Below, piece by piece: positions 26,401 through 48,831 of a stretch of 64,000 nt of DNA (its first letter is position 1; each line of letters begins with the position of its first letter). Position numbers and translations under genes: made by a program. The stretch is from the IMG/VR virus record IMGVR_UViG_3300042306_000801; one strand, written 5' to 3'. A model generated the notes under the pieces. It searched no databases. It saw nothing but the letters and a program-made list of their open reading frames with translations, and was not told the origin of the DNA. Origin of the DNA: an uncultured virus (IMG/VR IMGVR_UViG_3300042306_000801) (lineage: Duplodnaviria; Heunggongvirae; Uroviricota; Caudoviricetes).

Positions 26401-26683
26401 TGGAGCTGAATTAAAACTAACAGGCTCTATGTTTGTTAGTGGTGCGATAAGTGCATCTGGATTTAACATATATGCAACCGGTACACCTGAAATAACATCA
26501 GCAACTAACTTAAACTTAACAGCTGGTACTGCGGTAATTGTAACACAATCACCGATGAGAATGGCAACATTCACCGATGTACAAACTGGAAGTTTGACTC
26601 CTGCAAATGGAGATATGATTTATAATTCAACCACTCATAAATTTATGGGATACGCTAATGGAGCGTGGGTAGCATTACATTAA
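23417..26683 (+). CDS. Virion fibre / decoration-like protein with collagen-like (G-S/T-S)n repeats
   Basis: N-terminal KGSPLTAAEMDAN, four blocks of GSSGTS / GKDGTS Gly-X-Y repeats, repeated (I)TGSL / ISGSL beta motifs, C-terminal NGDMIYNSTT..FMGY...W. Confidence 0.75.
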   Translation: MAIIKRIPKGSPLTAAEMDANLTILENVSSSVNTLYTTTDNLNSTLTSVSSSVSNLSTLSGQLSGQFTGSVLISGSLRFDNISTDAVASEVLVYNSSTKTIGKTTSIATGPAGSDGSSGTSGKDGTAGSSGTSGSSGTSGKDGTSGSSGSSGTSGSSGSSGTSGESGTSGSSGTSGSSGSSGTSGKDGTSGSSGSSGTSGQNGDRFSSTSSTSNDISTGSKNFTIGTGLQWTPGQAIIISENASNVLEGTVTSYNSGTGDLVVNITTTSGSGTGITSWYINTAGAPGQSGSSGTSGSSGSSGTSGSSGTSGSSGSSGTSGSSGSSGTSGKDGTTGLDGTSGSSGTSGSSGSSGTSGSSGSSGISGTAGTSGLTTTVFPYTGSALISGSLHMTGSIKIGKTQYGGALYGPTIQFLDLGSDSRGVDEVTSFLWWTDKNGNNKGELETTAGATGFHKLAIKEFEEIKLSPSDAITMTKSVGITGSLFVSTSLSASLREGYAWVGGPNNRTILVATSSFGSAGSGTGIFAATGSVFATTNNIQITGSLQVSGPLSASLPQGYAWVGGVNDISRIIATSSFGAITVSQQGGSSFGSVRTIRFNGAVVADDGGGQVTITTGGGGGGLTINSGSFSAAATTTLTLDNTIRATNSGGGTVALTVAGGVGGGGSNGTSGTSGKDGGGGTSGSSGTAGVSGSGGTSGTSGKDGSSGTSGLNGIGAPGTDGTSGTSGVSGGGGTSGSSGTSGSSGSSIALTINDDVGPTSISGVNQITFTGGAVITDSPGSGHITITAGTGGGAGSAGSSGKDGTSGTSGKDGTFVGSSGTSGSSGFGKDGTSGVNGSNGTSGTSGISGFFGSSGTSGLDGTFIGSSGTSGLTGANGTMGTSGSSGTSGTSGLTAAGATAGSGGTSGTNGAPGANGSDGTSGSSGKNGLDGTAFGSSGTSGLTGTSGVNGTNGTNGTSGTSGVASLLAVTGSVNNGIVRYENAPERLFVSNTLTFDGAELKLTGSMFVSGAISASGFNIYATGTPEITSATNLNLTAGTAVIVTQSPMRMATFTDVQTGSLTPANGDMIYNSTTHKFMGYANGAWVALH
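23745..26300 (+). repeat. Coding tandem repeats (GGTTCATCTGGTACATCT-like 9/18-bp units) in four blocks
   Basis: Approximate blocks at 23745-24020, 24270-24530, 25410-25650 and 25790-26300, encoding GSS/GTS triplets. Confidence 0.85.
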
Positions 26684-26689
26684 TAAAAT

Positions 26690-28255
26690 ATGAGAGAATA
26701 TAACGTTATCTTAAAAAAAGATGTAGATTACGATGGGTTTTGGAATGATATAGAAAGTGATACCGATGGTGGTAATCTTTACATTCCAAATCGTAGAGTA
26801 GAGTTTACAAATGAAAGACCTACATCTTTACGTCAATGTTGGTACTTGCTGACAGATGAAGAAGCTGAGCAATTAAAATTGGATGATAGAGTACTTGGTG
26901 TAGAGATTCCACCTGAACATAGAACTGATATTCAAATAGGACATCGTGCAATTCAACCAGGAGATTATACAAAAACAACATCCGATAGCGGTGTATTTTT
27001 AAATTGGGGATTAATACGTTGTAATTCTACTTCAAATGTATATGGTAGTGGGACAACTACTAATTTAAAATATAACTACACATTAACGGGTGACGGAGTA
27101 GATGTAGTAATTCAGGATAGTGGATTACAAGTAGACCATCCTGAATTTCAAGATGAAAATGGAGTAACTAGAGTACAACAAATCAACTGGTCAACTGCAA
27201 GTGGTGTTTCGTTTACACAAAACGCAAATCATTATAGAGATTACGATGGACATGGTACACATTGTGCCGGTATAGCTGCGGGTAAAACATATGGTTGGGC
27301 TAAAAAAGCTAAAATATATTCTCAAAAATTAGATGGATTAGAAGGTAGTGGAGATAGTGGTACTGGTATTTCTATAACATATGCATTTGATGCAATCAAA
27401 GGTTGGCACAATAATAAATCATTAAATCCATTGACAGGGGTAAAAAGACCAACCGTAGTTAATATGAGTTGGGGATATTACACTTCATTTGGAGCATTAA
27501 CCGAAATTAATTATAGAGGAACATCATATACAGGAGCATCTATTGATACGAGTACCGAAAGAATAAATAATTTTGGAATAATGTCAGCGGCATCATCTAT
27601 ATCAAATGTAAGAATTGCATCGGTTGATACCGATATTCAGGAAATGATTGATGCTGGAATAATAGTATGTGTAGCAGCCGGTAATCGTTCTCATAAAATT
27701 GATGTTCCAAGTGGAACTGATTATAATAATTACTATAACGATGGTACTGGTGCAACTTATTATCATAGAGGTTCTTCTCCGTTCGATGATGAAGCGTTTA
27801 TAGTTGGTAACATTGATAGTACGGTTTATGATACAAATAATGACCAAAAATCAACATCATCGGAAACAGGTCCAGGTGTAACAATATATGCACCGGGTAC
27901 TGATATTATGAGTGCATGTTCAAATACAAATAGATTTAGTGGACAATCTTATTACTTAAACTCATCATATAAACAATGTAATATTAGTGGTACATCTATG
28001 GCATCTCCACAAGTAGCAGGTGTATGTGCTTTGTTTTTAGAAGCAAATCCTAGATTAACACCCGCACAATTAAAATCGGCAATATTAGCAAATGCAGGTA
28101 CTGCGATATACGATACTGGTGTGAATAATGATTGGACAAATTATAGAAGTTTAAAAGGTGGTAGTTTAAAGGTATTATACAATAAGTTTAATTCCGAAAA
28201 AACATTTTCAGCTACAAACATATCATTTTCAGGTATTGGGTTTAAAATAAGATAA
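26690..28255 (+). CDS. S8 (subtilisin-like) serine peptidase
   Basis: Catalytic triad VVIQDSG / DGHGTHCAG / SGTSMASPQVAG, oxyanion AAGN, VVNMSWG. Confidence 0.93.
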   Translation: MREYNVILKKDVDYDGFWNDIESDTDGGNLYIPNRRVEFTNERPTSLRQCWYLLTDEEAEQLKLDDRVLGVEIPPEHRTDIQIGHRAIQPGDYTKTTSDSGVFLNWGLIRCNSTSNVYGSGTTTNLKYNYTLTGDGVDVVIQDSGLQVDHPEFQDENGVTRVQQINWSTASGVSFTQNANHYRDYDGHGTHCAGIAAGKTYGWAKKAKIYSQKLDGLEGSGDSGTGISITYAFDAIKGWHNNKSLNPLTGVKRPTVVNMSWGYYTSFGALTEINYRGTSYTGASIDTSTERINNFGIMSAASSISNVRIASVDTDIQEMIDAGIIVCVAAGNRSHKIDVPSGTDYNNYYNDGTGATYYHRGSSPFDDEAFIVGNIDSTVYDTNNDQKSTSSETGPGVTIYAPGTDIMSACSNTNRFSGQSYYLNSSYKQCNISGTSMASPQVAGVCALFLEANPRLTPAQLKSAILANAGTAIYDTGVNNDWTNYRSLKGGSLKVLYNKFNSEKTFSATNISFSGIGFKIR

Positions 28256-28353: not shown

Positions 28354-28983
28354 ATGATAAATGTTACATATGCCATTACAGTTTGTAATGAAATAAATGA
28401 AATCACAACTTTAGTTGATTTTTTACAACCGAGGATAAAATCCGAAGATGAAATATTGGTTCAATATGATTCGGATTCTGCAACATCGCAGATAAAAGAT
28501 TATTTAAATATAATCTCACAAATACACAGAAATATAAGAGTAATTTCATTTCCTCTTAATAAAGATTTTGCATCATTTAAAAATAATCTAAAAAATAATG
28601 CAAATGGTATTTTTATTTTTCAAATTGATGCAGATGAAATGCCATCTGAATATTTGGTTGAAAATATACATACTTTTTTAGAATATAATAAAGATGTAGA
28701 CCTTTTCTTCGTACCTAGAATTAATACGGTCAATGGTCTAACTGCCGAACATATTAAGAAATGGGGATGGAAAGTTAATGAAAAAGGTTGGGTAAACTTT
28801 CCCGATTATCAAACTCGTATTTATAGAAGAACTTCAGAAATAGAATGGAGTGGTAAGGTACATGAAAGAATAGCGGGATATAATACCTTATCAATTTTAC
28901 CTCAAGAAGAAATCTATTGTCTGTATCATCATAAGCAAATTGAAAGACAAGAAAAACAAAACGCTTTATATGATACAATCTAA
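28354..28983 (+). CDS. Glycosyltransferase, GT2-like
   Basis: ITVCNE, FQIDADE, PDYQTR, W.GKVHE. Confidence 0.85.
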   Translation: MINVTYAITVCNEINEITTLVDFLQPRIKSEDEILVQYDSDSATSQIKDYLNIISQIHRNIRVISFPLNKDFASFKNNLKNNANGIFIFQIDADEMPSEYLVENIHTFLEYNKDVDLFFVPRINTVNGLTAEHIKKWGWKVNEKGWVNFPDYQTRIYRRTSEIEWSGKVHERIAGYNTLSILPQEEIYCLYHHKQIERQEKQNALYDTI

Positions 28984-29971
28984 AATAGCTTTCCTTACTG
29001 AAATGGGATTTGTTGGTAAAATACCGGCTCATCATCCAAATATGAGAACCGAATTTGCTTGGATGCACGCTTTAGATGCAGACCATTATAATATTCATCT
29101 ATTTGGTGCGGACAAACATTTGATTAATTATGACCACGTGTTTATCATATTTCCAAAAGGCAAAGTATTTTTAAGTGCAGAGGGAAGTAAAATTATAGAT
29201 GGTATTAATCCATTTTCAGAATTATTACAACAAGATATAGTTGGTAAATTGAAGGAAAGAGGTAATAAGAAAGTCCATTATATTCAAGAAGGACCGCATT
29301 GGTGGTATAATGATTATACTATATCAGACCAAATCTATTTCTTTAATTTCTTACAATCATGTGATTCAATCTTTACGCACAATGATTCGGATATATATTA
29401 TTATAAGGGATTGTTTCCTAATAAAAAAGTAAGACCTATTGGTACACTAATGATTGATACTCTAATCAAAGATATAGTACCTACAAAAGAAGATAAAGCA
29501 ATTATAGGTGGTAATTTCGCAAGATGGTATGGTGGGTTTGAAAGTTATATGATAGCTGGTAACTTTGATGTTCCTATTTGGGCACAAACATCTCATGCTA
29601 TGAGAGAGAATGAAAATGTAATTGATAACTTAACTCACTTACCAAGATTAATGTGGAGTGAATGGATGACCGTATTATCAACATTCAAATACGCAGTTCA
29701 TATGATGCCAACGGTAGCAGCTGGTACGTTTGCCCTAAATTGTGCATACTTTGGTATCCCTTGTATTGGAAATCAAGATGTAGATACTCAATTACTTTGT
29801 CACCCATCCTTATCGGTAGCTGTAAATGATTTAGAAAGTGCAAGAGAATTGGCAATAAGATTGAGAGATGACAAACAATTTTACAATGAGTGTTCAGAAA
29901 TGGCAAAGGCTAATTATGAAGCTTGTTTTTCAAAAGAACTTTGGTTAAAAAGAATAATGACGGAATTATGA
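28970..29971 (+). CDS. Putative GT-B-fold glycosyltransferase
   Basis: AAGTFALNCAYFGIPCIG resembles the GT-B C-terminal motif, and the gene lies in a GT cluster. Confidence 0.55.
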   Translation: MIQSKIAFLTEMGFVGKIPAHHPNMRTEFAWMHALDADHYNIHLFGADKHLINYDHVFIIFPKGKVFLSAEGSKIIDGINPFSELLQQDIVGKLKERGNKKVHYIQEGPHWWYNDYTISDQIYFFNFLQSCDSIFTHNDSDIYYYKGLFPNKKVRPIGTLMIDTLIKDIVPTKEDKAIIGGNFARWYGGFESYMIAGNFDVPIWAQTSHAMRENENVIDNLTHLPRLMWSEWMTVLSTFKYAVHMMPTVAAGTFALNCAYFGIPCIGNQDVDTQLLCHPSLSVAVNDLESARELAIRLRDDKQFYNECSEMAKANYEACFSKELWLKRIMTEL

Positions 29972-30738
29972 TAACAGTTATATTAAATGGTTACAAAAGA
30001 GCGGAAAATCTTAATGAACAATTAGAGGCATTAAGAAACCAAACGGTTCAGCCGGATGAAATACTTTTTTGGTATAATAATCCTGGTGATAATGACCTGA
30101 TTAATTACGATATTGGTACTGAAATAGCGGGTGCATATTGCAACTATAACTTTGGTGTATGGGCACGATTTGCTTTTGCATTTATGGCTAAAAATCCATA
30201 TGTTTGTATTTTTGATGATGATACTATACCTGGTTCAAAATGGTTAGAGAATTGCATGAATACAATGAAAACGAATGAAGGACTATTGGGTACGGTTGGG
30301 TTAATTTATCCACAACCACTTCCACCGGAACAATCATCATACTATGAACCATATGCTAGAGTTGGTTGGCCTGAAGGTGGGAATAATGAACATACATTAG
30401 AAGTTGATTTAGTTGGACATAGTTGGTTCTTTAAAAAGGAATGGTTATCTCATATGTGGAGAGAACAACCTGAATCTAAATATAATACCTGTGGTGAAGA
30501 TATGCACTTCTCATATATGTTGCAGAAGTATGCGGGAATTAAAACATTTGTACCACCACATCCAAAGAATGATAAACAAATGTGGGGAAGTATAAAAGGA
30601 GCACAATATGGTGGCGATGCTAATTCACTATGGGAATCAAATCAGAGAAGTGTGGAAGGTGTACCATTTAGAGCATTGATGAATGAATATTTTCATAACC
30701 AAAGAATGAAAGGTTGGAAACTTGTATATGAAAAATAA
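29968..30738 (+). CDS. Putative GT-A glycosyltransferase
   Basis: ITVILNGYKR, QTVQP, IFDDDT, GEDMHFS. Confidence 0.75.
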   Translation: MITVILNGYKRAENLNEQLEALRNQTVQPDEILFWYNNPGDNDLINYDIGTEIAGAYCNYNFGVWARFAFAFMAKNPYVCIFDDDTIPGSKWLENCMNTMKTNEGLLGTVGLIYPQPLPPEQSSYYEPYARVGWPEGGNNEHTLEVDLVGHSWFFKKEWLSHMWREQPESKYNTCGEDMHFSYMLQKYAGIKTFVPPHPKNDKQMWGSIKGAQYGGDANSLWESNQRSVEGVPFRALMNEYFHNQRMKGWKLVYEK

Positions 30739-30740
30739 AC

Positions 30741-31337
30741 ATGAAAACGGCAATTGTTATACAAGGTAGCACTATTTGTGATAATATAGAAAAATTGAAA
30801 AATGATTGGAAACCATTTCCTATTATTTTTTCAACATGGGAAGGCGAGCCAACCTATTGTTATCCGGATAAAAACGATGTAGTTGTATATAGTCCTAGAC
30901 CAGAAATAGTTGGAGTTGGTAATTTAAATTTACAAAGAGTATCATCTTTAAATGGATTTATAAAGGCAAAAGAACTGGGATACGATAGAGTTGTAAAGTG
31001 GAGATATGATTTGTTCCCAATCAATTGTGAAGAAATATTTAAATCGTTTAAAAGTGATTGTTTAAATTTTCTAGCATATCACCAACATAATGCCGGATAT
31101 TTGGTAGATTATTTATCGGAAGGAAATGTTGATGATATGATTCAATTATTTACATTTTCAGATTTTAATGTACCACATGCAGAAGTTGCATTTACAAATA
31201 GATTGTTTGAGCTGGGATTTGATAAAAAAATCAATTTCATTCTCAAAAATTTAGAAAAAGATAGAGTTGACATTTATTGGCAAAAATATAACAATTATTT
31301 GAGTCATTATAAAAACATAGAGGCATTTAAAACGTAA
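30741..31337 (+). CDS. WavE-like polysaccharide-modification protein
   Basis: AIVIQG, IIFSTW, NLNLQ..SSLNG, VVKWRYD; a paralogue of 46189-46962. Confidence 0.55.
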   Translation: MKTAIVIQGSTICDNIEKLKNDWKPFPIIFSTWEGEPTYCYPDKNDVVVYSPRPEIVGVGNLNLQRVSSLNGFIKAKELGYDRVVKWRYDLFPINCEEIFKSFKSDCLNFLAYHQHNAGYLVDYLSEGNVDDMIQLFTFSDFNVPHAEVAFTNRLFELGFDKKINFILKNLEKDRVDIYWQKYNNYLSHYKNIEAFKT

Positions 31338-31340
31338 CAA

Positions 31341-32066
31341 ATGAGTAAAGTTAATGTAATAATACCAATGGCCGGTGCTGGTAAACGATTCTCCGATGTG
31401 GGATACGATGTTCCAAAACCATATATACCTGTTAATGGAAAACCAATGGTTCAATCGGTTGTTGAAAATTTGAATATAGATAGTAGACACATTTTTATTA
31501 TTCAAAAACAACATGCGGTTGATAATGACTTACAACTTTTTTTAGAATCAATAAAACCTGGTTGTGTAGTTATTGAAGTTGATGAATTGACAGAGGGACC
31601 TGCGTGTACGGCATTATTGGCAGAAGAATATATTGATGATAGTCCTTTAATCATCGTTAATTGTGACCAAATGATACATGATTTCGATGTTAATAAACTT
31701 TTGGAATTTTGTGATAAAAACGAAGCAGACGGAATATTAGGTGCATTTATTTCATCTTCAAAGAAAAATTCATATATGAAGTTAGACCCTCAAGGAGAGG
31801 TTACCGAAGTGAAAGAAAAGATTGTAATCAGTAATATTGCAACTAATGGACTTCATTTTTGGAAAAATGGAAAAAATTTCGTATCTTCGGTGAAAGAAAT
31901 GATAAAAGTTGGGGAAAGATATAATAATGAATTTTATATAGCACCATCGTACAATTATTTAATCAAAGATGGTAAAAAAATATTACCATTCTTTTATAAT
32001 TTACATTGGCCTATTGGTGTACCTGACGATTTAAACAAATACAAACAATTATATGGATATTCTTAA
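31341..32066 (+). CDS. Sugar-phosphate nucleotidyltransferase (BcbE-like capsule family)
   Basis: IIPMAGAGKRF, PKPYI.VNGKPM, TEGPACT, NCDQ, EK..IS, NNEFYIAP, GVPDDL. Confidence 0.85.
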   Translation: MSKVNVIIPMAGAGKRFSDVGYDVPKPYIPVNGKPMVQSVVENLNIDSRHIFIIQKQHAVDNDLQLFLESIKPGCVVIEVDELTEGPACTALLAEEYIDDSPLIIVNCDQMIHDFDVNKLLEFCDKNEADGILGAFISSSKKNSYMKLDPQGEVTEVKEKIVISNIATNGLHFWKNGKNFVSSVKEMIKVGERYNNEFYIAPSYNYLIKDGKKILPFFYNLHWPIGVPDDLNKYKQLYGYS

Positions 32067-32376
32067 AATGAAAGACATGAAAGGTGGGTGGTTTATTGGA
32101 AACTTTGAACCAACTGCTTTTAAAACAGACCAATTTGAGGTTTGCTATAAACACCACACAAAAGGTGAAAAATGGGATACGCATTATCACAAAGCCGGGA
32201 CTGAAATAAACTATTTAGTTAGTGGAAAAATGACAATACAAAATAAAGAATTGAATGAAGGTGATATTTTTATTTTAAATCCATACGAAATTGCTGACCC
32301 AATATTTTTAGAAGATTGTACGGTACTAATCGTTAAAACACCTTCGATACCTGGTGATAAATTTCTTATTAATTAA
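32053..32376 (+). CDS. Cupin-domain protein
   Basis: GWFIGNFEP, HYHK..TE..Y..SG, GDIF...PYE. Confidence 0.75.
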   Translation: MDILKMKDMKGGWFIGNFEPTAFKTDQFEVCYKHHTKGEKWDTHYHKAGTEINYLVSGKMTIQNKELNEGDIFILNPYEIADPIFLEDCTVLIVKTPSIPGDKFLIN

Positions 32377-32386
32377 AACACAAATT

Positions 32387-33616
32387 ATGATAAACATTTT
32401 TACAAAAGACATTAATATAAACAACTATTTTATAGTTACATATTTTTTAGAGGCAAAAACTTCTTTAAGAGAAGCGGCGTGGAATTTAGCAATTGGACAA
32501 AGTATAGGAAATCCAAACAATAGAAGTATTTGGGAAACCGAAGAAATGTTTATGGAGCATAGCTGTTTCATACTCGCCGAAGAAGATTATTTAAAATCGG
32601 TAAAAGAAGGCATTGTTAAAATTGCATTCCCGTTATCCAATATAAATTTAGAAGAAGACGGTGTATCTCAAATTTTATGTCACGTAGCAGGTGGACAAGT
32701 GGATATTTTAGAAATTCAAAAATGTCACGTGTTGGATATAGAACTTCCTGAAGAAATTGAAAACTCTTTTAGATTAAAACCAGCATACGGTATAGATGGA
32801 TTTAGAAAATTCAATGGAGTTAATCAGAAACCATTTTTTGGTGGAATTATAAAACCAAAAGTAGGAATGTCTCCTGAAGTATTATTAGAAGCGGTTAAAG
32901 AGATGGTTGCCGGTGGAGTTAATTTTATCAAAGAAGATGAATTACTTGCAAACCCAGAACATTGTCCACTTGAAAAGAGAGTTCCTTTAGTAGTTAATTG
33001 GTTAAAAGAAAACGCACCAGATGTAATCTATTGTTTTTGCATTAATGGAGATAGTCCATATGCATTACAAAGAGCAAAATTTGTAGCCGATAATGGTGGT
33101 AATGGTATTCACATTAACGTTTGGAGTGGATTAGGAGTTTATAGAGCAATACGAAAAGAAAATCCAAATTTATGGATACATTTCCAAAAAAGTGGAGATA
33201 AATTTTTCACCGATACAAGAGCTCCGTTCCACATTTATTGGCCTGTAATTTGTAAAATAGCAGGATGGTCTGGTTCAGATTCTATTCACGCCGGAATGAT
33301 AGGTGGATATATGAATCAGGATGAAAAAGAATTAAGTGATGCATTAAAAGTATTATGGCATTATAATATCGTTCCTGCGCTTAGTTGTGGTATGCATCCT
33401 GGTTTAGTGGAATATATAAATGAATTATTAAATAGTTTTGATTGGATGGCTAATGTTGGTGGAGCAATGCATGGACATCCGATGGGAACTTTAGCCGGTG
33501 GATTAGCTATGAAACAGGCTATTAATAAAGAGTTCGATTCGGTTGAATACAAAGTAGCAATAGAAAAGTGGGGAAATAAAGAATTTAACCCAGATTTGGC
33601 ATATAGATTTTTTTAA
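32387..33616 (+). CDS. RuBisCO-like protein (form IV, RLP)
   Basis: GIIKPKVG, GGVNFIKEDE (carbamylation motif), DSIHAG, PALSCGMHPG, VGGAMHGHPMG. Several carboxylase-specific residues are substituted. Confidence 0.9.
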   Translation: MINIFTKDININNYFIVTYFLEAKTSLREAAWNLAIGQSIGNPNNRSIWETEEMFMEHSCFILAEEDYLKSVKEGIVKIAFPLSNINLEEDGVSQILCHVAGGQVDILEIQKCHVLDIELPEEIENSFRLKPAYGIDGFRKFNGVNQKPFFGGIIKPKVGMSPEVLLEAVKEMVAGGVNFIKEDELLANPEHCPLEKRVPLVVNWLKENAPDVIYCFCINGDSPYALQRAKFVADNGGNGIHINVWSGLGVYRAIRKENPNLWIHFQKSGDKFFTDTRAPFHIYWPVICKIAGWSGSDSIHAGMIGGYMNQDEKELSDALKVLWHYNIVPALSCGMHPGLVEYINELLNSFDWMANVGGAMHGHPMGTLAGGLAMKQAINKEFDSVEYKVAIEKWGNKEFNPDLAYRFF

Positions 33617-33617
33617 A

Positions 33618-34622
33618 ATGAATAAAAAAGACCCAATATTAATATGTTTTGGTACTAGACCAGAATGGTTGAAAGTAAAACCATTGATTGATATCATGGA
33701 TAAGAAAGAATATAAACTCTTATTCACAGGTCAACATGAAGATTTACTTTCGGATGTAAAAGTTGATTTTAGAGTTAATATAGAAGAATCCTTTCGTCAT
33801 ACTAGATTAGATTCTATTATGATTGGTTGTATGGAATATTTTCCAAATTACAAATTTAGAGGTGTGTTAGTGCAAGGTGATACGGCTTCCGCTTTTGCAT
33901 GTGCATTAGCAGCTTATCATAGAGGTATTAAGATATATTATATGGAAGCTGGGTTAAGGAGTTACGATTTAGAAAACCCATATCCTGAAGAAGGATATAG
34001 ACAGATGATAGCTCGTTTAGCAGATATTAATTTTGCACCAACACAACTTTCTGCTGAAAATTTAGATGCGGAAAGAGTAAAAGGAGATATCCATATAGTT
34101 GGGAATACTGTATTGGATAATCTTATGAAGTATGATAAAGGTAGCTATGGTGATACTATTCTAGTAACAATGCATCGTAGAGAAAATCATCATTGGTTAG
34201 ATGAATGGTTTAATGTAATTAATCAGTTAGCAATTGATTATCCACAATACAAATTTGTATTACCGATTCATCCAAATCCAAACGTACAAAAGCATAAGAA
34301 TTTACTAACAAATATTAATATCGTAGAACCTTTAACGCACAATGAAACAATTAATATTCTTAAAGATTGTAAGTTGGTAGTTACCGATAGTGGTGGATTG
34401 CAAGAAGAAGGTTCTTTTTTTAATAAGAAAGTAATTGTATGTAGAAAAACAACGGAAAGACCTGAAGGTATAAAAACCGGTCATCTTTATATGTGCGAAG
34501 AACCAACTAAACTTAAAGAATTATTTGGTGAGTTGGAAAAGAATTCGTATATTTGTAAACCTTGTCCATATGGAGACGGTAGAGCAGCGGAAAAAATTAA
34601 AAAGATATTAGATGCAGAATAA
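33618..34622 (+). CDS. wecB: UDP-N-acetylglucosamine 2-epimerase (non-hydrolysing)
   Basis: FGTRPE, TGQH, VQGDT, EAGLRS, PEE..R, HRREN, HPNP, TDSGGLQEE, TERPE, PYGDG.AA. Confidence 0.93.
   Translation: MNKKDPILICFGTRPEWLKVKPLIDIMDKKEYKLLFTGQHEDLLSDVKVDFRVNIEESFRHTRLDSIMIGCMEYFPNYKFRGVLVQGDTASAFACALAAYHRGIKIYYMEAGLRSYDLENPYPEEGYRQMIARLADINFAPTQLSAENLDAERVKGDIHIVGNTVLDNLMKYDKGSYGDTILVTMHRRENHHWLDEWFNVINQLAIDYPQYKFVLPIHPNPNVQKHKNLLTNINIVEPLTHNETINILKDCKLVVTDSGGLQEEGSFFNKKVIVCRKTTERPEGIKTGHLYMCEEPTKLKELFGELEKNSYICKPCPYGDGRAAEKIKKILDAE
34524..34555 (+). promoter_or_regulatory. Bacteroidota-type promoter embedded in the 3' end of wecB
   Basis: TTTG at 34524-34527 (followed by GT), N20, and TCG-TATATTTG with TATATTTG at 34548-34555, the same context as the intergenic copies. 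Confidence 0.6.
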
Positions 34623-35334
34623 ATTTCAAACAGATTTTGAATACTACACCAATCTTATAAAATCGGATACAAATTTTGCTTATGCAAGATATGCTGACGG
34701 TGAAGTTGGTTTGATGAAAGGTAATGCAATTGGTACTAATTCACAAGCATTTGCAGTTGATAGATGGACTACTCCAATTGGATTAAATAAAGTTGGTGAA
34801 GGGTTATTAAAATCATTGGAACATACCGAAACCAATTACCATTATGCAATATCAGCTCATTCGGATAGCATTGATGATTATACTTTCTTATCAGATAGAA
34901 TTCAAAACTCAAATAAAACTTTTGCAAATCTTTGGATAAATTCAAATTATCAAAAGATGTATGAGTTTTATAAAACATTGGATAAGAGTGTATATGTTAT
35001 ATGTAATCATAGAGCTAGGAAAGAAAATTTTCCATTTAAAGTAAATGAAATATTTCCATTTCCAGATGATTGTATAAGATATTGGTTAGATTATGGTGAG
35101 GACTATATTACACAGCTAATTGAATATGTATCCCAATTAGAGAATCAAACATTTTTTGTATCTGCGGGTCCTGTTTCTGAAATACTAATAGATGAAATGT
35201 ATAGAGCTAATCCAAATAACCAATATGTAGATGTTGGTTCTTCTATTGATGAATTTACACATGGTAGAAAAACAAGACCTTACATGGACCCATATTCTCA
35301 ATACTCAAAAGAAATATCTTATTTTTATGAATAA
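34612..35334 (+). CDS. Putative GT-D-fold (DUF1792-like) glycosyltransferase
   Basis: ARYADGE, SAGP, YVDVGS motifs. Confidence 0.55.
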   Translation: MQNKFQTDFEYYTNLIKSDTNFAYARYADGEVGLMKGNAIGTNSQAFAVDRWTTPIGLNKVGEGLLKSLEHTETNYHYAISAHSDSIDDYTFLSDRIQNSNKTFANLWINSNYQKMYEFYKTLDKSVYVICNHRARKENFPFKVNEIFPFPDDCIRYWLDYGEDYITQLIEYVSQLENQTFFVSAGPVSEILIDEMYRANPNNQYVDVGSSIDEFTHGRKTRPYMDPYSQYSKEISYFYE

Positions 35335-36022
35335 ACTACCGTTAGTAATATACACGCATACGGATATGAAAGATGTATGGCCATCTTTTTTTGGGCAATT
35401 AAATAAATTTATGCCTGATTATAAACTCTATGTATGTGTTAATGAAATTGATAAGGCACTTCCAGAAAATTGCTTACAAATCACATATGATGATTCTAAA
35501 AAATATACAAATCGTATTTTAGAATGTTTGGATAAAATAAATGAAGATGTGATATTATTTTTTCACGAAGATATGATTTTATATTCCAATCCACTTCACA
35601 TATATTTAGAAAAATATTATGAATATATTTTAACCGATAAAGCTAATAGTATAAAATTATTATATGCTGGTTCGGGTGGAACAAAATCGGAATTTGAAGA
35701 TACTTTGGTTCAAAATGATTTATCTAAATTTTCAATACAACCAACTATTATTAAAACTAAAACATTTAAGGAGTTAATAGAAAATCATTTAGAATTAACA
35801 ATTTATGAATTTGAAGATTCTATAAAGTTGAATGAAAAAGATTTTTCAGCAACGAATGGTATTGAGAAAAAAAGAGGAATATTCCATTATGATAGTTTTG
35901 TATTTCCATACATAGCAACTGCGATTAATAAAGGTAAATGGAATTTAACAGAATATCAAACCGAATTAAATCCTATTTTTGAAGAATATAATATAAACCC
36001 GTTTGATAGAGGAATTTGGTAA
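35327..36022 (+). CDS. Putative glycosyltransferase-like protein
   Basis: ILFFHEDM, FSIQPTI, AINKGKW; ATG at 35327; located in the GT cluster. Confidence 0.5.
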   Translation: MNKLPLVIYTHTDMKDVWPSFFGQLNKFMPDYKLYVCVNEIDKALPENCLQITYDDSKKYTNRILECLDKINEDVILFFHEDMILYSNPLHIYLEKYYEYILTDKANSIKLLYAGSGGTKSEFEDTLVQNDLSKFSIQPTIIKTKTFKELIENHLELTIYEFEDSIKLNEKDFSATNGIEKKRGIFHYDSFVFPYIATAINKGKWNLTEYQTELNPIFEEYNINPFDRGIW

Positions 36023-36023
36023 T

Positions 36024-37400
36024 ATGACAAAATTAATTATCTTTGACTTAGATGGTGTACTAGTTGAAGCAAAAGAAATACACTACAATACATTAAACCA
36101 GGCATTGAGAGAAATCGAAATTCTAACTGGTAATTCTTATGTAATTACCGAAGCTGAACATCTATCAATATACGATGGATTAAAGACAACTCAAAAGCTT
36201 GAAATGCTTACTAAAAATAAAGGGTTACATACCGATTTCTATGATGAAATTTGGTATAGAAAACAACACTTAACTATTGAGGCAATATCCCAATTACAAA
36301 CTAATCATGTATTGGTTTCAGTATTCAAAGAGTTGAGAGATAGAGGTTATCAATTAGCATGTGCTTCAAATTCAATTAGAAGGTCTGTATTGGTTATGTT
36401 ATCAAAGATAGGACTTATTGAGTATATGGATTTAATCCTTTCTAATGAGGATGTAAAGAACTCTAAACCACATCCTGAAATGTATTGGAAGGCTATGAGT
36501 ATGATGGGTGTATTACCGGAAGAAACGTTAATTGTAGAAGATTCACCACCCGGTTTGTTAGCTGCGAGTAGAAGTAGAGCAAATGTTTTGAGAGTAGATA
36601 ATCCACATGATTTGACATTAGAAAAAATAGTAAACAAATTAAACGAAAAGAAAGTTATGAGTAAACCAAAATGGCAAGGTGGTAAGATGAACGTACTTAT
36701 CCCAATGGCAGGTGCAGGAACTAGATTTCAACAAGCCGGATATACGTTCCCTAAACCACTAATTGATGTGGAAGGTAAACCAATGATTCAGGTTGTAGTT
36801 GATAACCTAAACATAGATGCTACATTTATCTATGTAGTTCAGAAATCACATAGAGAGAAGTATAACTTGGATACCCTTTTAAACTTAATTACGCCTAATT
36901 GTAAGATTGTGGAAGTTGATGGATTGACAGAAGGTGCAGCATGTACTACTCTATTGGCAAAAGAATTGATTGATTCCGATGCACCTTTATTGATGGCAAA
37001 CTCTGACCAATTTATAGAGTGGGATTCAAATGAGTTTATGTATAAGATGATTGAACAAAAAGTTGATGGTGGTATCCTTTCATTTCATTCAACTCATCCT
37101 AAATGGTCATTTGCTAAAGTGGATGAGTATGGTTATGTAACCGAAGTACAAGAGAAGAATCCAATTTCAGATATAGCAACTGTTGGTGTTTACTATTGGG
37201 CTAAAGGTTCTGATTATGTAAAGTATGCAGAACAAATGATTAATAAAAATATAAGAGTAAATAATGAATTCTATGTTTGTCCTGTTTTCAATGAAGCAAT
37301 TGGTGATGGTAAAAAAATAAAAACATTCAATATTGAAAAAATGTGGGGATTAGGTACACCTGAAGATTTAAAATATTACCTAGAAAATTACAATAAATAA
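36024..37400 (+). CDS. HAD phosphatase fused to a BcbE-like nucleotidyltransferase
   Basis: N-domain FDLDGVL, ASNS, KPHPE, VEDS..G; C-domain IPMAGAGTRF, PKPLIDV.GKPMI, TEGAACT, NSDQ, GLGTPEDL. Confidence 0.88.
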   Translation: MTKLIIFDLDGVLVEAKEIHYNTLNQALREIEILTGNSYVITEAEHLSIYDGLKTTQKLEMLTKNKGLHTDFYDEIWYRKQHLTIEAISQLQTNHVLVSVFKELRDRGYQLACASNSIRRSVLVMLSKIGLIEYMDLILSNEDVKNSKPHPEMYWKAMSMMGVLPEETLIVEDSPPGLLAASRSRANVLRVDNPHDLTLEKIVNKLNEKKVMSKPKWQGGKMNVLIPMAGAGTRFQQAGYTFPKPLIDVEGKPMIQVVVDNLNIDATFIYVVQKSHREKYNLDTLLNLITPNCKIVEVDGLTEGAACTTLLAKELIDSDAPLLMANSDQFIEWDSNEFMYKMIEQKVDGGILSFHSTHPKWSFAKVDEYGYVTEVQEKNPISDIATVGVYYWAKGSDYVKYAEQMINKNIRVNNEFYVCPVFNEAIGDGKKIKTFNIEKMWGLGTPEDLKYYLENYNK

Positions 37401-37411: not shown

Positions 37412-38104
37412 ATGATGTTAGATTTTAACCAATTGTTAGAAAAATACAATATTAAAATAAATGGTGTTCTACACGTTGGGGCACATGAAGGCGGTGAAAC
37501 ATTAGCTTATGTAAAAGCTGGTATAAAAGATGTGATACTCGTTGAAGCAAATCCATTTAGATTCAGCAATTTAAGCGAATCATTAAATACCGGTAGATAT
37601 GTTACTTGGTGTTCACCACTTACATATTCTTATTTTAACGATAGTGAAGCCCAAATTCTAAAAGGATACAAAGCATATAACTACGCAGTTAGCGATAAAG
37701 AAGATGGTGTTATTACTTTTAATTTGAGTAACTACGATGGTGGTACTGATTCTATTTTTAAAATCAATGAGTGGGGTAGAGATTCATCTTGGGTACCGTA
37801 TGAACATATTGCTGAAATTGAAGTACCAACCATTACATTAGATAAATTGGTTGAAAATAAAAATACTTACAATTTCTTAAATATGGATGTTGAAGGAGCT
37901 GAGTTGATTGTTTTAAGTGGAGCTACCGAAGTATTAAAGCATTTAGATTGTATTATGTTAGAAACACAGGATAAAATAAGATTTGAAGGTTCTTGCACTA
38001 GAGAACAATTGACTGAATTTTTAAAACCACATGGATTTGAACTTAAAGAGTATCATGATACTGGTAAAGAGTGGGGTGATTGTCTTTTTTTAAAAAATAA
38101 ATAA
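37412..38104 (+). CDS. FkbM-family methyltransferase
   Basis: LHVGAHEG, VEANP, ITLD, NMDVEGAEL.VL.GA, WGDCLF. Confidence 0.85.
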   Translation: MMLDFNQLLEKYNIKINGVLHVGAHEGGETLAYVKAGIKDVILVEANPFRFSNLSESLNTGRYVTWCSPLTYSYFNDSEAQILKGYKAYNYAVSDKEDGVITFNLSNYDGGTDSIFKINEWGRDSSWVPYEHIAEIEVPTITLDKLVENKNTYNFLNMDVEGAELIVLSGATEVLKHLDCIMLETQDKIRFEGSCTREQLTEFLKPHGFELKEYHDTGKEWGDCLFLKNK

Positions 38105-39264
38105 TGAATAGAAAAATTACATTTTGCATACCATCTAAAAACAATCTTCGTTATCTTAAAAATAGTATTCAATCTATTAAAGCAAATAGTTTACATCAAA
38201 ACGAAATTATAGTATATGTGGATGCGGATAACGATGGTACAAAAGAATGGTTAGATGAAAATCGTATAAAGTATTTGGTTAATGATACCGATACACCGAA
38301 GGGAATTGCATATGGATACAATAGATGTATTGAAGCAGCAACTACACCAATCGTATGTATGTTCCATGCCGATATGTACATGGGGCAGTGGTTTGATGAT
38401 GCTATATTAAAACATCTAAAACCACTTTCGGTAGTTAGTGGTACTCGTATAGAACCACCACTACATCCAAAGGGATTAGAAAAGATTGTAGAAGATTTTG
38501 GTATGTATCCAGAAGATTTCAAAAAAGCAGAATTTGATAAGTTTGTTTATGAGATGAGATATGTGTATGAAGGAAAAACAACTAAAGGAATATTTGCACC
38601 TTGGGCAATATATAAAGAAGATATTACTTCAATTGGTATGCATGATGAGAGATTTCATTCTTATCACGAAGACTCTGATATGTTTAATCGTTTTATTTTA
38701 AATGGATATGAAATAATTCAAACATGGGAAGCATTAGTATATCATTTGACATGTAGAGGCGGACAATTTCAAGATGGAATTGAGCAGGTAACCAAAGATG
38801 AAGCATTTCATAAAATGAAAAATAGTGCATTTAAAAACTATATTAGAAAATGGGGACATTTTGTTAAAAACGATGAATACCAACATCCGATTATACCACA
38901 TAAATACAATATATGTTTTAACATAAAAAACACAAAAATAGAAGCATTGGATTTTTTAGAACCTTGGTGTTCAAATATCAAAACAGATTTATCACAAGAA
39001 AAAATAAATGAGTTCATCTCAAAACAACAAGATGGATGTATTGTACCATTGATTGATAAAATAAATAACGCAAATGAAAGTGATATTGAAATTGAATTTG
39101 ATATAAATCAAATTACACAAGAAGCAATAAATTTTATAGTTGATTTGAGTTTAATTTTAGATGATAATCAATTAGAAAAAGGAGAATATCAGTTTGGTAT
39201 TTTCAAATTCAAAGTAAATAGAATTTATCATATGGAAACCGAACTAATAAAATATAATATCTAA
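38104..39264 (+). CDS. Glycosyltransferase, GT2-like
   Basis: FCIPS, D...DGT, HADM, DERF...EDSD, VYH. Confidence 0.8.
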   Translation: MNRKITFCIPSKNNLRYLKNSIQSIKANSLHQNEIIVYVDADNDGTKEWLDENRIKYLVNDTDTPKGIAYGYNRCIEAATTPIVCMFHADMYMGQWFDDAILKHLKPLSVVSGTRIEPPLHPKGLEKIVEDFGMYPEDFKKAEFDKFVYEMRYVYEGKTTKGIFAPWAIYKEDITSIGMHDERFHSYHEDSDMFNRFILNGYEIIQTWEALVYHLTCRGGQFQDGIEQVTKDEAFHKMKNSAFKNYIRKWGHFVKNDEYQHPIIPHKYNICFNIKNTKIEALDFLEPWCSNIKTDLSQEKINEFISKQQDGCIVPLIDKINNANESDIEIEFDINQITQEAINFIVDLSLILDDNQLEKGEYQFGIFKFKVNRIYHMETELIKYNI

Positions 39265-40142
39265 TGAAGACTACTTTATTTTGTATGCATGTGATGCCAC
39301 ATGAAATTGAAATGCTTGAAAGATTTATGGTACAATATCGTAAGGCTCTTTCTTATTTAGATGCAAATGACAACTTTACAATGAAAGTTAGTCTTAATTT
39401 AAATCCAGAATTAACTGATTGGGAAGCTAGTGAATTAAAACAAGATTATTTTATTGAAAAATTTAATACACTATTTGATGGTATAAAAAATATAAATGAA
39501 ATAATCACCGATAATTCATTGTGGGGAACTACTCAACAAAAAAGAGAAAGTATCAAATTATATTATGACCAATTTATATTCTGCGATGCGGATATACTTT
39601 TACATGAACATTTATTGAAACACCAATTAAATTTATCATATCAGTTAAATAATATGTATATAGTATCACCATCCATTCCTCGTTGGTGGGATGATAGTTG
39701 GGATGTAATTGTGCATAAAAATTTATTAAATACAGGATTAGGATATGCACATAGTGAAGATGCTGTAAAAAATGCATATACACAGGATGTAAGTGATATA
39801 TCGGTTAGAATTGTTCCATCTGCAAAATTTGGATGTGGTATGCATACTTTATATTCAAGAAGTTTTTGGAATTTCACAGGAATTCCTGATTCATTTGGTG
39901 GTTATGGTCCAGAAGATACATACGCTATGAATTGTACTGATGTTGCACGTAAATATGGACATGAGATAGTTCAGGTTCTTCTTGATGGTATATACATAAC
40001 CGAAGACTATATTAATAATAAACCTTCTTTTATAGATAAGATTGTAAGAATTGATAAGAAGAAAGAGTTTTATGACAAGGCGTTTGCTCTAGGTAGGGAC
40101 GAATTATTAGTATTTGCAAAAAGGATATTGAATTTAGGGTAA
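39264..40142 (+). CDS. Putative GT-A glycosyltransferase
   Basis: FIFCDADI, F.GYGPEDT. Confidence 0.65.
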   Translation: MKTTLFCMHVMPHEIEMLERFMVQYRKALSYLDANDNFTMKVSLNLNPELTDWEASELKQDYFIEKFNTLFDGIKNINEIITDNSLWGTTQQKRESIKLYYDQFIFCDADILLHEHLLKHQLNLSYQLNNMYIVSPSIPRWWDDSWDVIVHKNLLNTGLGYAHSEDAVKNAYTQDVSDISVRIVPSAKFGCGMHTLYSRSFWNFTGIPDSFGGYGPEDTYAMNCTDVARKYGHEIVQVLLDGIYITEDYINNKPSFIDKIVRIDKKKEFYDKAFALGRDELLVFAKRILNLG

Positions 40143-41804: not shown

Positions 41805-42275
41805 ATGATATATTGGTTTACAGGACAACCGGGTGCCGGAAAAACTATTCAGGCTACAAAACTTAGAGAATTTCTTCAAACTGAAAAACGTAATTGGAGA
41901 AAAGATGTATTTCACATTGACGGTGATGATTTGAGAGAATTGACACTTAACAAAGATTATTCAGAAACAGGTAGAGTGCAAAATATAAAGAATGCACAAT
42001 TACTTGCTTTTTTCTTAAACGCAAAAGGATGTGATGTTGTTGTATCGTTGGTATCGCCGTATAGGGAATTGAGAGAAGAATTTAAAACGGAATGTGGAGA
42101 GAGTATTGTTGAAATATATGTACACACAACCCGTAAAAGAGGTAGAGAAGAATTCAAAGTACAGGAGTATGAAGCACCTGAAGTAAATTTCTTTGATATG
42201 AATACTACATCGGAAACTCCAATACAATCATTTACCAAATTAATTCATCATCTTAAAAATATTGATAAAATATGA
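41805..42275 (+). CDS. cysC: Adenylylsulfate (APS) kinase-like protein
   Basis: IYWFTGQPGAGKT, IDGDDLR, DYS..GR..N, VSLVSPY...R, EIYV, YEAP. Confidence 0.8.
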   Translation: MIYWFTGQPGAGKTIQATKLREFLQTEKRNWRKDVFHIDGDDLRELTLNKDYSETGRVQNIKNAQLLAFFLNAKGCDVVVSLVSPYRELREEFKTECGESIVEIYVHTTRKRGREEFKVQEYEAPEVNFFDMNTTSETPIQSFTKLIHHLKNIDKI

Positions 42276-48617: not shown

Positions 48618-48652
48618 TTCAACAATGATATATTTAATCAAAATATAGTATT

Positions 48653-48820
48653 ATGAATATGGAAAATAAAATTAAAGACATAATAGAAATGCTAGAAGAT
48701 GCTATTTCATTTGAAGATTGGCGTAGAGTGGAAGATGCTAGAAAAGAATTAACATTTTTGTTTGAAGAAATTGAGTCATCATTTCCAATGGATGAATGGG
48801 ATAATGAAGAACTTGATTAA
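48653..48820 (+). CDS. Small acidic hypothetical protein (55 aa)
   Basis: Manual translation MNMENKIKDIIEMLEDAISFEDWRRVEDARKEL... Confidence 0.5.
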   Translation: MNMENKIKDIIEMLEDAISFEDWRRVEDARKELTFLFEEIESSFPMDEWDNEELD

Positions 48821-48831
48821 TACATAAAATT

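Follow-up and report, generated by a model that had tools for sequence, protein, structure and literature searches.

An uncultured virus of the Caudoviricetes (IMG/VR record IMGVR_UViG_3300042306_000801) encodes a RuBisCO-like protein (RLP), which is the subject of this report; the whole stretch of its DNA that was analysed, 64,000 nucleotides long, is called the window below. The RLP gene is preceded by genes for a nucleotidyltransferase (NTase) and a small cupin, and the three lie within an operon for glycan synthesis. It is likely that the RLP is an active isomerase or epimerase that does not carboxylate its substrate and that would feed the synthesis of a nucleotide-activated glycan precursor. 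This reading is drawn from the active site of the protein, from its linkage and fusion to NTases and from the exchange of the cassette between phages. Its gene context is one of glycan building: three GT2 genes, WecB, FkbM and a HAD-NTase fusion accompany the RLP gene in the window, and LicD, GT9, GDPD and DUF7796 genes accompany its homologues in cells.

Judged from its profile matches, the open reading frame (ORF) at 32387-33616 is a full-length homologue of the RuBisCO large subunit. It scores 107 bits against PF00016 (cut-off 30.1) and 23.8 bits against PF02788 (cut-off 20.7), and 99 RuBisCO and RLP sequences of the PDB match it at E<=1e-3, the best being the form III enzyme 2cwx of P. horikoshii (5.8e-36), followed by other RuBisCOs and RLPs. 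Translation probably starts at the ATG at 32387, because the database homologues are 409 amino acids long (P0002, with 100% identity and coverage). The equivalog models of NCBIfam all scored below their cut-offs: 158.8 against 497 bits for rubisco_III, 135.4 against 438 for NF003252, 93.9 against 489 for Form II, 117 against 409 and 95 against 513.6 for the MtnW models NF007095 and TIGR03332, and 115.4 against 700 for OiaX. None of the PHROGs families matches the RLP, and a tblastn search of 50,697 phage records gave no match. Its relatives number 2634 proteins at E<=1e-10; the best 120 of the clusters listed are each at least 80% identical and lie on contigs that reach 334 kb.

The active site was checked in HMMER alignments to form III sequences of the PDB and in a MAFFT alignment with NCBIfam-verified form III enzymes; the residue numbers are those of spinach RuBisCO, placed on the RLP by motif and presumed to be the right equivalents. 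Conservation was followed in an alignment of the window RLP with 86 other non-identical sequences of its clade (87 in all, viral or representative). K175 and K177 (IKPKVG) and K201, D203 and E204 (KEDE) are kept in 87/87 sequences, and the RLP also keeps H327, S379, G381 and G403/G404, the glycines of the P1 phosphate site being retained. E60 and N123 are each replaced by G in 86/87, H294 by Q in 87/87 and K334 by Y in 86/87; further changes are T65 to N, R295 to K, H298 to D (74/87) and G380 to C (85/87). The initial annotation, made by eye, had listed K175/K177, K201/D203/E204, H327, S379 and G403/G404 as kept and E60, N123, H294 and K334 as lost, and both lists were borne out by the alignments, the lost residues being G, G, Q and Y. 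A signature of 20 sites is the same in 44/44 full-length cellular members, down to 34% identity, and only H292, R295, H298 and one G404 vary among them; the Legionella RLPs, 34-36% identical overall, keep it. As far as the alignments tell, this is the pattern of purifying selection on a distinct catalytic site, and a site so divergent and yet so fixed points to one conserved, non-carboxylating activity. The RLP is hence predicted to be an isomerase or epimerase that enolises its substrate with the help of Mg2+ and a carbamate, and not a carboxylase. We infer enolisation and reprotonation without carboxylation because the kept residues are those that abstract a proton beside a Mg2+-bound carbonyl, whereas the lost ones are those that add CO2 or water.

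A maximum-likelihood tree of 80 rows was built from the 150 best representatives returned by a quick search, a set in which forms I and IV-Photo are absent. One branch (Shimodaira-Hasegawa approximate likelihood ratio test, SH-aLRT, 99) separates the window RLP, P0158 and 17 close representatives from form III/II (99), the OiaX-like (100) and MtnW-like (98) groups and the remaining RLPs. The OiaX-like representatives retain K334 and make up a clade of their own (SH-aLRT 100). On this tree the RLP clade is distinct from the form III, MtnW-like and OiaX-like groups. Neither in the tree nor by score (117 bits against 409) does the RLP cluster with MtnW-type enolases, a result that would have refuted the role first proposed for it. 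Some RuBisCO-family fusions were seen outside the clade, namely a TIR-RLP protein (P0222, 583 amino acids) and an RLP joined to an APH-type kinase (P0241, 1265 amino acids).

It is scarcely credible that the RLP is instead an auxiliary metabolic enzyme with coincidental neighbours, either a form III-like carboxylase of an AMP/nucleotide pathway or an OiaX-like decarboxylase of acid-sugar catabolism. Form III does give the best PDB and NCBIfam matches (2cwx, 5.8e-36; rubisco_III, 158.8 bits), K177 is kept as in true RuBisCOs and a gene for an AAA+ protein containing CbbQ_C lies 18 kb away. Such an enzyme is, however, at odds with the replacement of E60, N123, H294 and K334 throughout the clade and with equivalog scores that all stay far under their cut-offs; the first two grounds also uphold the earlier statement that the RLP is not a CO2-fixing carboxylase. 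The IF-2B/R15P isomerase fusions (an IF-2B isomerase joined to a form III-like domain) belong to another clade, with 32-34% identity, and the linkage and fusion to NTases set out below are far too constant for coincidence.

The operon and the second glycan block further downstream contain the following features:

28354-28983, + strand: GT2 glycosyltransferase (Pfam Glycos_transf_2; the upstream GT2 pair matches at 1.2e-6 and 6.3e-8), upstream end of the glycan operon
28940-29971, + strand: ORF without an assigned family, between the upstream GT2 genes
29923-30738, + strand: GT2 glycosyltransferase (Pfam Glycos_transf_2), upstream end of the glycan operon
30741-31337, + strand: ORF of 198 amino acids, possibly a truncated WavE/DUF7796-like transferase, just before the NTase gene
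31341-32066, + strand: NTase of the 4evw type (Pfam NTP_transferase 2.6e-14; phrog_3980 1.7e-57)
32053-32376, + strand: small metal-binding cupin of 107 amino acids (Cupin_7 3e-4; phrog_24762 1.3e-35)
32387 (ATG)-33616, alternative start 32354 (GTG), + strand: RLP of 409 amino acids (RuBisCO_large 1.4e-30; RuBisCO_large_N 5.5e-5)
33618-34622, + strand: WecB-type non-hydrolysing UDP-GlcNAc 2-epimerase (TIGR00236, 231.7 bits against a cut-off of 210.15)
34612-35334 and 35231-36022, + strand: two overlapping ORFs of 240 and 263 amino acids, no family match
36003-37400, + strand: fusion of a bPGM-like HAD and a second 4evw-type NTase (HAD_2 1.2e-29; NTP_transferase 1.3e-10)
37412-38104, + strand: FkbM methyltransferase (Methyltransf_21 1.6e-15), downstream end of the glycan operon
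38104-39264, + strand: GT2 glycosyltransferase (Glycos_transf_2 4.6e-12), downstream end of the glycan operon
39264-40142, + strand: ORF without an assigned family, downstream end of the glycan operon
46189-46962, + strand: protein like the WavE family of lipopolysaccharide (LPS) synthesis (Pfam WavE 2.2e-10), second glycan block
46959-47426, + strand: putative mini-GDPD phosphodiesterase of 155 amino acids (cluster 3, or c3), 60% identical to cluster-3 members
47802-48617, + strand: DUF7796-like putative transferase of predicted GT-A fold, 271 amino acids (cluster 4, or c4), 42% identical to cluster-4 members; phrog_13607

The gene order and the tight packing described in the initial annotation agree with the ORF coordinates and family matches. 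Two of its labels found no confirmation. The ORF of 198 amino acids had been called WavE-like; hhalign aligns it weakly to a c4/DUF7796-type profile, with a probability of 11% (E 0.0027), and it has no Pfam match at E<=0.1. The two overlapping ORFs at 34612-36022, formerly given as glycosyltransferase-like, match no family in Pfam, PHROGs or NCBIfam, nor the c4 profile. NCBIfam also returned no match for the cupin, the c3-type ORFs and several ORFs of the operon.

The family profile of the NTase aligns with PDB 4evw along its full length (positions 3-234, 1.8e-34), and G12, G14 and R16 of its nucleotide loop G-x-G-x-R are invariant. The profile finds GDP-mannose pyrophosphorylase at 1e-13 and RmlA at 1e-10, and LicC, IspD and TarI at 5e-5 to 3e-4; by these scores the NTase is nearer to the sugar-1-phosphate NTases than to the LicC/IspD/TarI group. 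Nothing relevant on the function of 4evw was found in the literature searched. In the cupin family, H44, H46 and E51 are invariant, the profile matches a quercetinase (3e-6) and small Cupin_2 proteins (4e-5) of the PDB, and the ESM Atlas returned only unnamed, mostly viral clusters.

In some proteins the RLP and its partners are joined in one chain. P0123 (667 amino acids) is an RLP-NTase fusion whose RLP part is 53% identical to the window RLP, and P0272 (813) and P0273 (817) contain RLP, NTase and cupin as a single chain, these being 2/2 matches in a search for longer proteins. The C-terminal cupin of P0272 matches the family profile with an hhalign probability of 99.9%; a mini-GDPD domain was sought in P0272 and P0273 and not found. 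A structure prediction of the RLP-NTase complex scored 0.00, which counts neither for nor against binding.

The HAD-NTase fusion appears to be a separate matter. Its HAD part reaches 94 bits with the PGMB family, below the cut-off of 153, its NTase half is 48% identical to the stand-alone NTase gene (tblastn), and the same fusion is present in the Pelagibacter locus L089. It probably constitutes a parallel branch leading from a sugar phosphate to a nucleoside diphosphate (NDP) sugar. The earlier proposal that both NTases act on the product of the RLP is not borne out by these data; the second NTase is fused to a bPGM-like HAD of its own.

The gene neighbourhood was followed in the best 80 of 122 RLP relatives in IMG/VR, where homologues were sought by tblastn with the proteins of the window. 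An NTase homologue is found in the flanks of 77/80 of these viral loci, usually about 1040 bp upstream of the RLP start (~-1040 bp), and the cupin in 76/80, usually at ~-320 bp. The other members of the operon are variable: WecB occurs in 11 of the 80 loci, a GT2 gene (GT2b) in 10 and FkbM in 6 by tblastn, a homologue of the 198-residue ORF upstream of the NTase in 10/80, those of the two overlapping ORFs in 9/80 and 8/80, and the HAD in 16/80. The flanks of L006 and L007 contain neither NTase nor cupin, and their RLP gene is preceded by that of a 638-residue protein (cluster 10), an RNA-ligase and HIGH-motif cytidylyltransferase-like type that is found ~8.7 kb downstream in 15 other loci.

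Further partners were obtained by de novo clustering of the ORFs of the viral loci. A protein of ~149 amino acids (c3) is encoded near the RLP in 62/80, usually directly 3' of it, and a protein of ~260 amino acids (c4) follows c3 in 41/80; in the window both stand 13 kb downstream of the RLP gene, in the second glycan block. The motif residues HRG..EN..ExD..HD of c3 are invariant in 21/21 sequences. Its profile matches the PDB GDPD 7e0v at 7.9e-5 over the first 52 positions only, and the protein has ~60% of the normal GDPD length; the AlphaFold2 model (predicted local distance difference test, pLDDT, 94) finds GDPDs as its top Foldseek matches, weakly (best E 8e-3). In c4, R127 and D129 are invariant, and its AlphaFold2 model (pLDDT 77) matches GT6 glycosyltransferases in Foldseek at 7e-7 with a TM score of only ~0.45, while its profile gave only a chance-level match to PDB sequences (E 0.041). 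Methyltransferases are also frequent (CmcI-like 22, FkbM 13 and TylF 11 among the 80), enzymes of the short-chain dehydrogenase/reductase (SDR) family occur in 24/80 and DegT aminotransferases in 10/80; LicD was found in 0/80.

RLPs of this clade are not confined to viruses. A scan of one genome per prokaryotic species gave 46 cellular loci, whose carriers include SAR11 (L089, a complete Pelagibacter chromosome, at 52%, and many single-cell genomes), Woesearchaeota, Nanoarchaeia, Micrarchaeota, Saccharibacteria and Beckwithbacteria (L092, 51% identical), Azospirillum oleiclasticum, a Tatlockia genome, three species of Legionella and a chromosome from the Verrucomicrobiae. Phage DNA may account for some of the short single-cell contigs, but not for the complete chromosomes or the isolates. 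The Azospirillum locus (L118), of high G+C content, gave unreliable naive ORF calls and was left out of the Pfam context scan. An NTase stands beside the RLP in 41/46 cellular loci, the misses being L082 (17 kb) and four contigs of 1.5-4.1 kb, whereas the cupin is found in 13/46, c3 in 21/46 and the HAD in 1/46. In Legionella nautarum a LicD gene (1e-42) is divergent from the RLP-NTase pair; LicD occurs in 4/4 Legionellaceae loci and in no other locus, and the same four are without c3 and GDPD. A full-length GDPD is found in 10 other cellular loci. The Pelagibacter locus L089 contains HAD-NTase, a GT9 heptosyltransferase, NTase, RLP and CTP_transf_3, and in a woesearchaeote locus the RLP-NTase pair is accompanied by a DUF7796 protein and by a full-length GDPD (5e-23).

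The linkage had been put forward as a way to check the proposed role, and NTases in 77/80 viral and 41/46 cellular loci, together with the fusions and the glycan-type loci, speak for it. A biosynthetic role coupled to the NTase, as first suggested, is thus supported by synteny and fusions; the accompanying idea that HAD and cupin trim the product is not, with the HAD in so few loci (16/80 and 1/46) and the cupin in 13/46 cellular ones. The data likewise give no support to a product that is specifically a branched or acidic sugar.

The partners of the RLP also occur on their own. Among 401 alphaproteobacterial genomes the cupin family is strong in three (G002, G061 and G294) and adjoins an NTase in 3/3; in G061 and G294, searches with Pfam and with the clade profile found no RuBisCO-family gene genome-wide. 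Six further alphaproteobacterial genomes with weak matches to the cupin profile (E 2e-5 to 8e-4) have no RuBisCO-family neighbour and were set aside. At the loci L174 (G061) and L175 (G294) a bPGM-like HAD, NTase and cupin stand together, and L175 adds WavE (2e-38), capsule-synthesis and GT10 genes, DUF7796 and GT25; its cupin is the C-terminal part of a 357-residue protein. The wider unit is a module of nucleotide-sugar type, composed of NTase, cupin, HAD and WavE/DUF7796 transferases. Since cupin and NTase occur without RLP, and RLP-NTase without cupin, the three are not an obligate trio, and the RLP is therefore a frequent but non-obligatory feeder of the module.

The same neighbourhoods bear on the order of the steps. 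The RLP might act after the NTase, on an NDP-keto-sugar (e.g., an NDP-4-keto-6-deoxyhexose), as a new epimerase or ketoisomerase of a deoxy- or amino-sugar pathway with an FdtA/RmlC-like cupin. Cupins act as ketoisomerases and epimerases in such pathways, the NTase is closest in sequence to sugar-1-phosphate NTases, and SDR dehydratases/epimerases (24/80) and DegT (10/80) are found in viral loci, many of which carry sugar methyltransferases; the window itself has an SDR gene at 62594-63442. This order is nevertheless unlikely, as an SDR dehydratase is lacking from the minimal Legionella loci (LicD, RLP and NTase), SDR and DegT genes are missing from the majority of loci, Pfam's FdtA and RmlC models both fail to match the cupin, and retention of the P1 phosphate glycines suits a simple phosphate ester.

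All genes of the window are on the + strand and its G+C content is ~0.33. A family B DNA polymerase (PHROG match 1.6e-183), a UvsX-like recombinase, a DnaB-like helicase, a ribonucleotide reductase, a clamp loader and a collagen-like tail fibre were recognised by PHROG matches, and comparison of the polymerase puts Microcystis phage Mel-JY01 (47.7%) nearest among named phages. A near relative, G001, has 273,997 bp, is 100% complete according to CheckV and carries a T4-type Gp23 capsid gene (8.4e-75). The window belongs to a large T4-like jumbo phage of lake water, and 19 DNA runs that bear the label lake water metagenome contain the sequence of the cassette. The gene psbA was looked for in G001 and not found, and there is therefore no cyanophage marker in that genome. 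A single 207-nucleotide contig from a metatranscriptome library falls inside the RLP gene at a depth of 2.7, which is too little to claim transcription.

Comparison of close relatives revealed that the cassette is exchanged. In L050 and L051 (the latter within G001), nucleotide identity with the window is 95-100% either side of the cassette, up to 31399, drops to 75-93% over 31400-32299 (NTase and cupin) and to 53-71% over 32300-33649 (RLP), and returns sharply to 97-100% from 33650, right after the RLP stop codon. The NTase-cupin-RLP stretch (31400-33649) is therefore a recombination mosaic. Two RLP alleles with ~54% protein identity are carried by otherwise near-identical phages, and both occur in the lake run X19, where the contig with the window allele is minor (depth 5.7, against 35-44 for the flank contigs) and the dominant contig (depth 32) diverges from the window sequence at 32362, a little upstream of the RLP start codon. 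The sharp swap of alleles and their presence in one lake run suggest diversifying exchange acting on the cassette, which is expected if it shapes a surface structure in phage-host recognition.

It is improbable, more so than an action on NDP-keto-sugars, that the cassette supplies a sugar donor for hypermodification of the phage DNA, as in phages with arabosylated cytosine, rather than for a surface or virion glycan. The cassette stands beside gp32 and other replication genes in 19/80 loci, a DUF1599 'nucleotide modification' gene is found in 10/80, and phage NDP-pentose pathways for DNA do exist (PMC13326640, PMC12838424). In cells, on the other hand, the RLP-NTase pair lies in loci of LPS or capsule type with LicD, GT9, WavE and GT25, and the window cassette is placed among GT2, WecB and FkbM genes, near the tail fibre. 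The thymidylate synthase of G001 is a strong full-length family match (320.9 bits), with no sign of a pyrimidine hydroxylase or hydroxymethylase, and PMC13326640 and PMC12838424 contain no mention of RuBisCO or a cupin.

For an RLP that works as a non-carboxylating isomerase or epimerase, the order of steps, the substrate and the glycan target that we infer are as follows. Carbamylated K201 with Mg2+ held by D203 and E204, together with K175/K177, would enolise a keto-sugar phosphate, for which a mono- or bisphosphate of a pentulose or hexulose is the likeliest candidate. Reprotonation of this ketose would then give an epimer, or else an isomer by a 1,2- or 1,3-shift of the carbonyl group. Direct passage of the product to the 4evw-type NTase is suggested by the fusions and by the Legionella locus with its minimal gene set, and the small metal cupin would act before or after the NTase step in most phages. 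The nucleotide-activated compound may be used by transferases of GT-A/WavE/DUF7796 type, and in other lineages LicD or GDPD-type phosphodiester enzymes may take part. The target glycan would be the LPS or capsule of the host or the collagen-like fibre encoded just upstream; DNA is less likely.

Two versions of the NTase step are about equally likely. The NTase may produce an NDP-sugar for glycosyl transfer, which fits its sequence kinship, the predicted GT-A fold of c4 and the fusion of the paralogous NTase to a bPGM-like HAD. Alternatively, it may produce an activated alcohol phosphate of cytidine diphosphate (CDP) type, to be installed as a phosphodiester substituent; this fits the LicD and GDPD-type partners and the fact that RuBisCO-family substrates carry non-anomeric phosphates. 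A bolder reading is possible and is put forward tentatively. In it the RuBisCO superfamily would have in these RLPs its first anabolic branch, turning a common pentulose (bis)phosphate into a rare phospho-sugar or phospho-polyol in one step; the NTase would activate this as a CDP-type donor with no mutase in between, enzymes of LicD, GDPD-like or GT-A type would attach it, as a phosphodiester or glycosyl decoration, to LPS, capsule or virion fibres, the pathway would be shared by phages, SAR11, DPANN, the candidate phyla radiation (CPR) and Legionella, and swaps of the RLP allele would vary the decoration.

Several points weigh against a non-carboxylating isomerase that feeds glycan synthesis. 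The tree lacks forms I and IV-Photo and was drawn from a quick search and the 150 best representatives only, and the viral loci are those of related phages and not independent samples. No NTase is found in the flanks of the viral loci L006, L007 and L057, nor in those of the long cellular locus L082 (17 kb). RLP-NTase occurs without a detected cupin in 33/46 cellular loci, and cupin with NTase occurs without RLP in two of the three alphaproteobacterial cupin carriers (G061, G294). A direct hand-off from RLP to NTase needs either an unusual specificity of the NTase or an unseen mutase, because the characterised relatives of the NTase use sugar-1-phosphates, whereas the phosphates of RuBisCO-family substrates are non-anomeric. 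Finally, the substrate is not readable from sequence, and a role for the sugar in DNA is conceivable.

Comparison with known systems helps to delimit the proposal. With form III RuBisCO (2cwx, archaeal AMP pathway) the RLP shares the two-domain architecture and K175, K177, K201, D203, E204, H327, S379, G381 and G403/404; it differs in that E60, N123, H294, R295, H298 and K334 are replaced and that R15P isomerase and AMP phosphorylase are missing as partners. The CDP-alcohol systems of LicC/LicD, TarI/TarJ and IspD type are alike in that an NTase activates a phosphomonoester and, with LicD, the phosphodiester is installed by an enzyme of that family; they differ in that the NTase of the window type matches LicC, IspD and TarI only at 5e-5 to 3e-4 and that LicD is found in 0/80 viral loci.

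The best mechanistic analogy is provided by the DeepYkr RLPs, where a RuBisCO-fold enolising isomerase again stands beside a small cupin and a pentulose phosphate is isomerised by proton transfer. At the locus L172 (G307), a genuine DeepYkr pair, the cupin is the orthologue of Rru_A2000 (PDB 3jzv, 3.2e-58), a locus tag that we take to be that of the methylsulfurylase. This cupin matches the profile of the phage cupins with an hhalign probability of 0.05% (E 0.79), and the L172 RLP is 23% identical to the window RLP over 157 amino acids (BLASTP, E 6e-11), with KPQ and KDDH where the window RLP has KPK and KEDE (K177 to Q, E204 to H). The cupins are hence unrelated beyond their fold, the RLPs differ at K177 and E204, and the DeepYkr system has no NTase and serves salvage, not glycan biosynthesis. 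In R. rubrum and R. palustris, DeepYkr was reported to be the 5-methylthioribulose-1-phosphate 1,3-isomerase of the methylthioadenosine (MTA)-isoprenoid shunt, with a methylsulfurylase as the adjacent cupin (PMC5893883).

An adjacent RLP and cupin are the hallmark of that shunt (PMC5893883), and MtnW, MtnX and MtnD are likewise an RLP, a HAD and a cupin by type (PMC3698126), which could suggest a phage module of methionine salvage, composed of MtnW and an MtnD-type dioxygenase or of a DeepYkr RLP and its cupin methylsulfurylase. The differences from L172 make this most improbable, as do the position of the clade, which is not nested in the MtnW group, and the MtnW scores of 117 and 95 bits against cut-offs of 409 and 514. 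No IF-2B/MtnA, ARD or Aldolase_II family was found among the window ORFs scanned, and the constant partner, the NTase, has no place in those pathways. Both an MTA-shunt pair and MtnW membership were rejected for the RLP and cupin from the L172 comparison, the tree and the NCBIfam scores.

A different parallel is known from phage DNA modification, in which ribulose 5-phosphate is converted to NDP-arabinofuranose via pentose-1,5-bisphosphate, a HAD phosphatase and an NTase (PMC13326640). The likeness lies in the combination of isomerase, HAD and NTase on a route from a ketose phosphate of the pentose phosphate pathway to an activated pentose, and phages do therefore build nucleotide-activated pentose pathways of this kind (PMC13326640). 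As far as that account goes, the isomerase is of the SIS type (arabinose-5-phosphate isomerase), AfhE serves as kinase/NTase and AfhF as HAD phosphatase, RLP and cupin do not appear, and the target is cytosine in DNA.

Directly 5' of the glycan operon, at 23417-28255, are encoded a collagen-like tail fibre of 1088 amino acids with internal repeats and then a subtilase (Peptidase_S8 2.2e-37); the fibre is a possible glycosylation target. The second block of glycan type (41805-42275 and 46189-49578) comprises WavE, the putative mini-GDPD, a SET-domain protein (2.5e-14) between c3 and c4, c4 itself and a sulfotransferase-like ORF. A gene for adenosine 5'-phosphosulfate (APS) kinase lies 4 kb upstream of it, and together with the genes of the block it hints at a sulfated or otherwise decorated glycan.

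At 49689-51935 and 52101-53306 the window encodes, among others, an AAA+ ATPase of the MoxR type whose C-terminal domain is that of CbbQ/NirQ/NorQ (5.7e-6); the ATPase is CobS-like and matches phrog_249 ('porphyrin biosynthesis'); it is preceded by a 748-residue protein that may be its CobT/CbbO-like partner. CbbQ and CbbO are RuBisCO activases in some bacteria, and a tie between this ATPase and the RLP is speculative. Three tandem paralogues of 409, 410 and 523 amino acids occupy 9022-13818, just 5' of the DNA polymerase gene, with a 239-residue ORF between the second and third and weak matches to N6_N4 DNA-methylase and phrog_12517. Auxiliary genes in four stretches (7060-9031, 53481-54146, 56629-57872 and 60360-61642) encode asparagine synthase, GNAT, GTP cyclohydrolase I, NifU and IscA-type proteins of Fe-S assembly, TerC and a 4HBT thioesterase.

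Phage RLPs are already in print, and the novelty first claimed for a virus-encoded RLP was overstated. Jaffe, Castelle, Dupont and Banfield (2019, Mol Biol Evol) described ~80 non-redundant phage RLPs, including sequences from Myoviridae, along with a single curated phage genome ~200 kb in length; the phage RLPs were found to group with those of Beckwithbacteria, and their function was left open (PMC6389311). The main text of that paper makes no mention of nucleotidyl, glycosyl or synteny for them (PMC6389311). The 'form IV-like' RLPs described there resemble those of the present clade in their large myovirus-type phages (~200 kb or more), in being highly divergent with several catalytic residues lost, in branching apart from the other RLPs and in the Beckwithbacteria grouping, L092 being 51% identical to the window RLP; matched by description and not by sequence, the two are very probably the same clade. 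The constant linkage to NTase and cupin, the fusions, the SAR11, Legionella and DPANN members and the exchange of the cassette go beyond that report. In a literature search poor in subscription journals, no paper was found that ties RLPs to NTases, LicD or nucleotide sugars, or that treats RuBisCO-like proteins together with viral auxiliary metabolic genes; as far as was searched, function and gene context are open in print.

To our knowledge, all characterised RLPs work in salvage or catabolism, that is, in methionine salvage, the MTA shunt or the breakdown of apiose and acid sugars. If the present reading is true, nucleotide-activated glycan synthesis would be a new functional class for the RuBisCO fold, which is among the most thoroughly studied of enzyme folds, and the function of the numerous phage RLPs reported in 2019 would have an explanation open to testing. 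Members of the family are common and occur in jumbo phages, SAR11 (a complete Pelagibacter chromosome among them), DPANN and CPR lineages and Legionella species; the sugar or phospho-substituent that it would help to produce may therefore be widespread on the surfaces of aquatic microbes and viruses.

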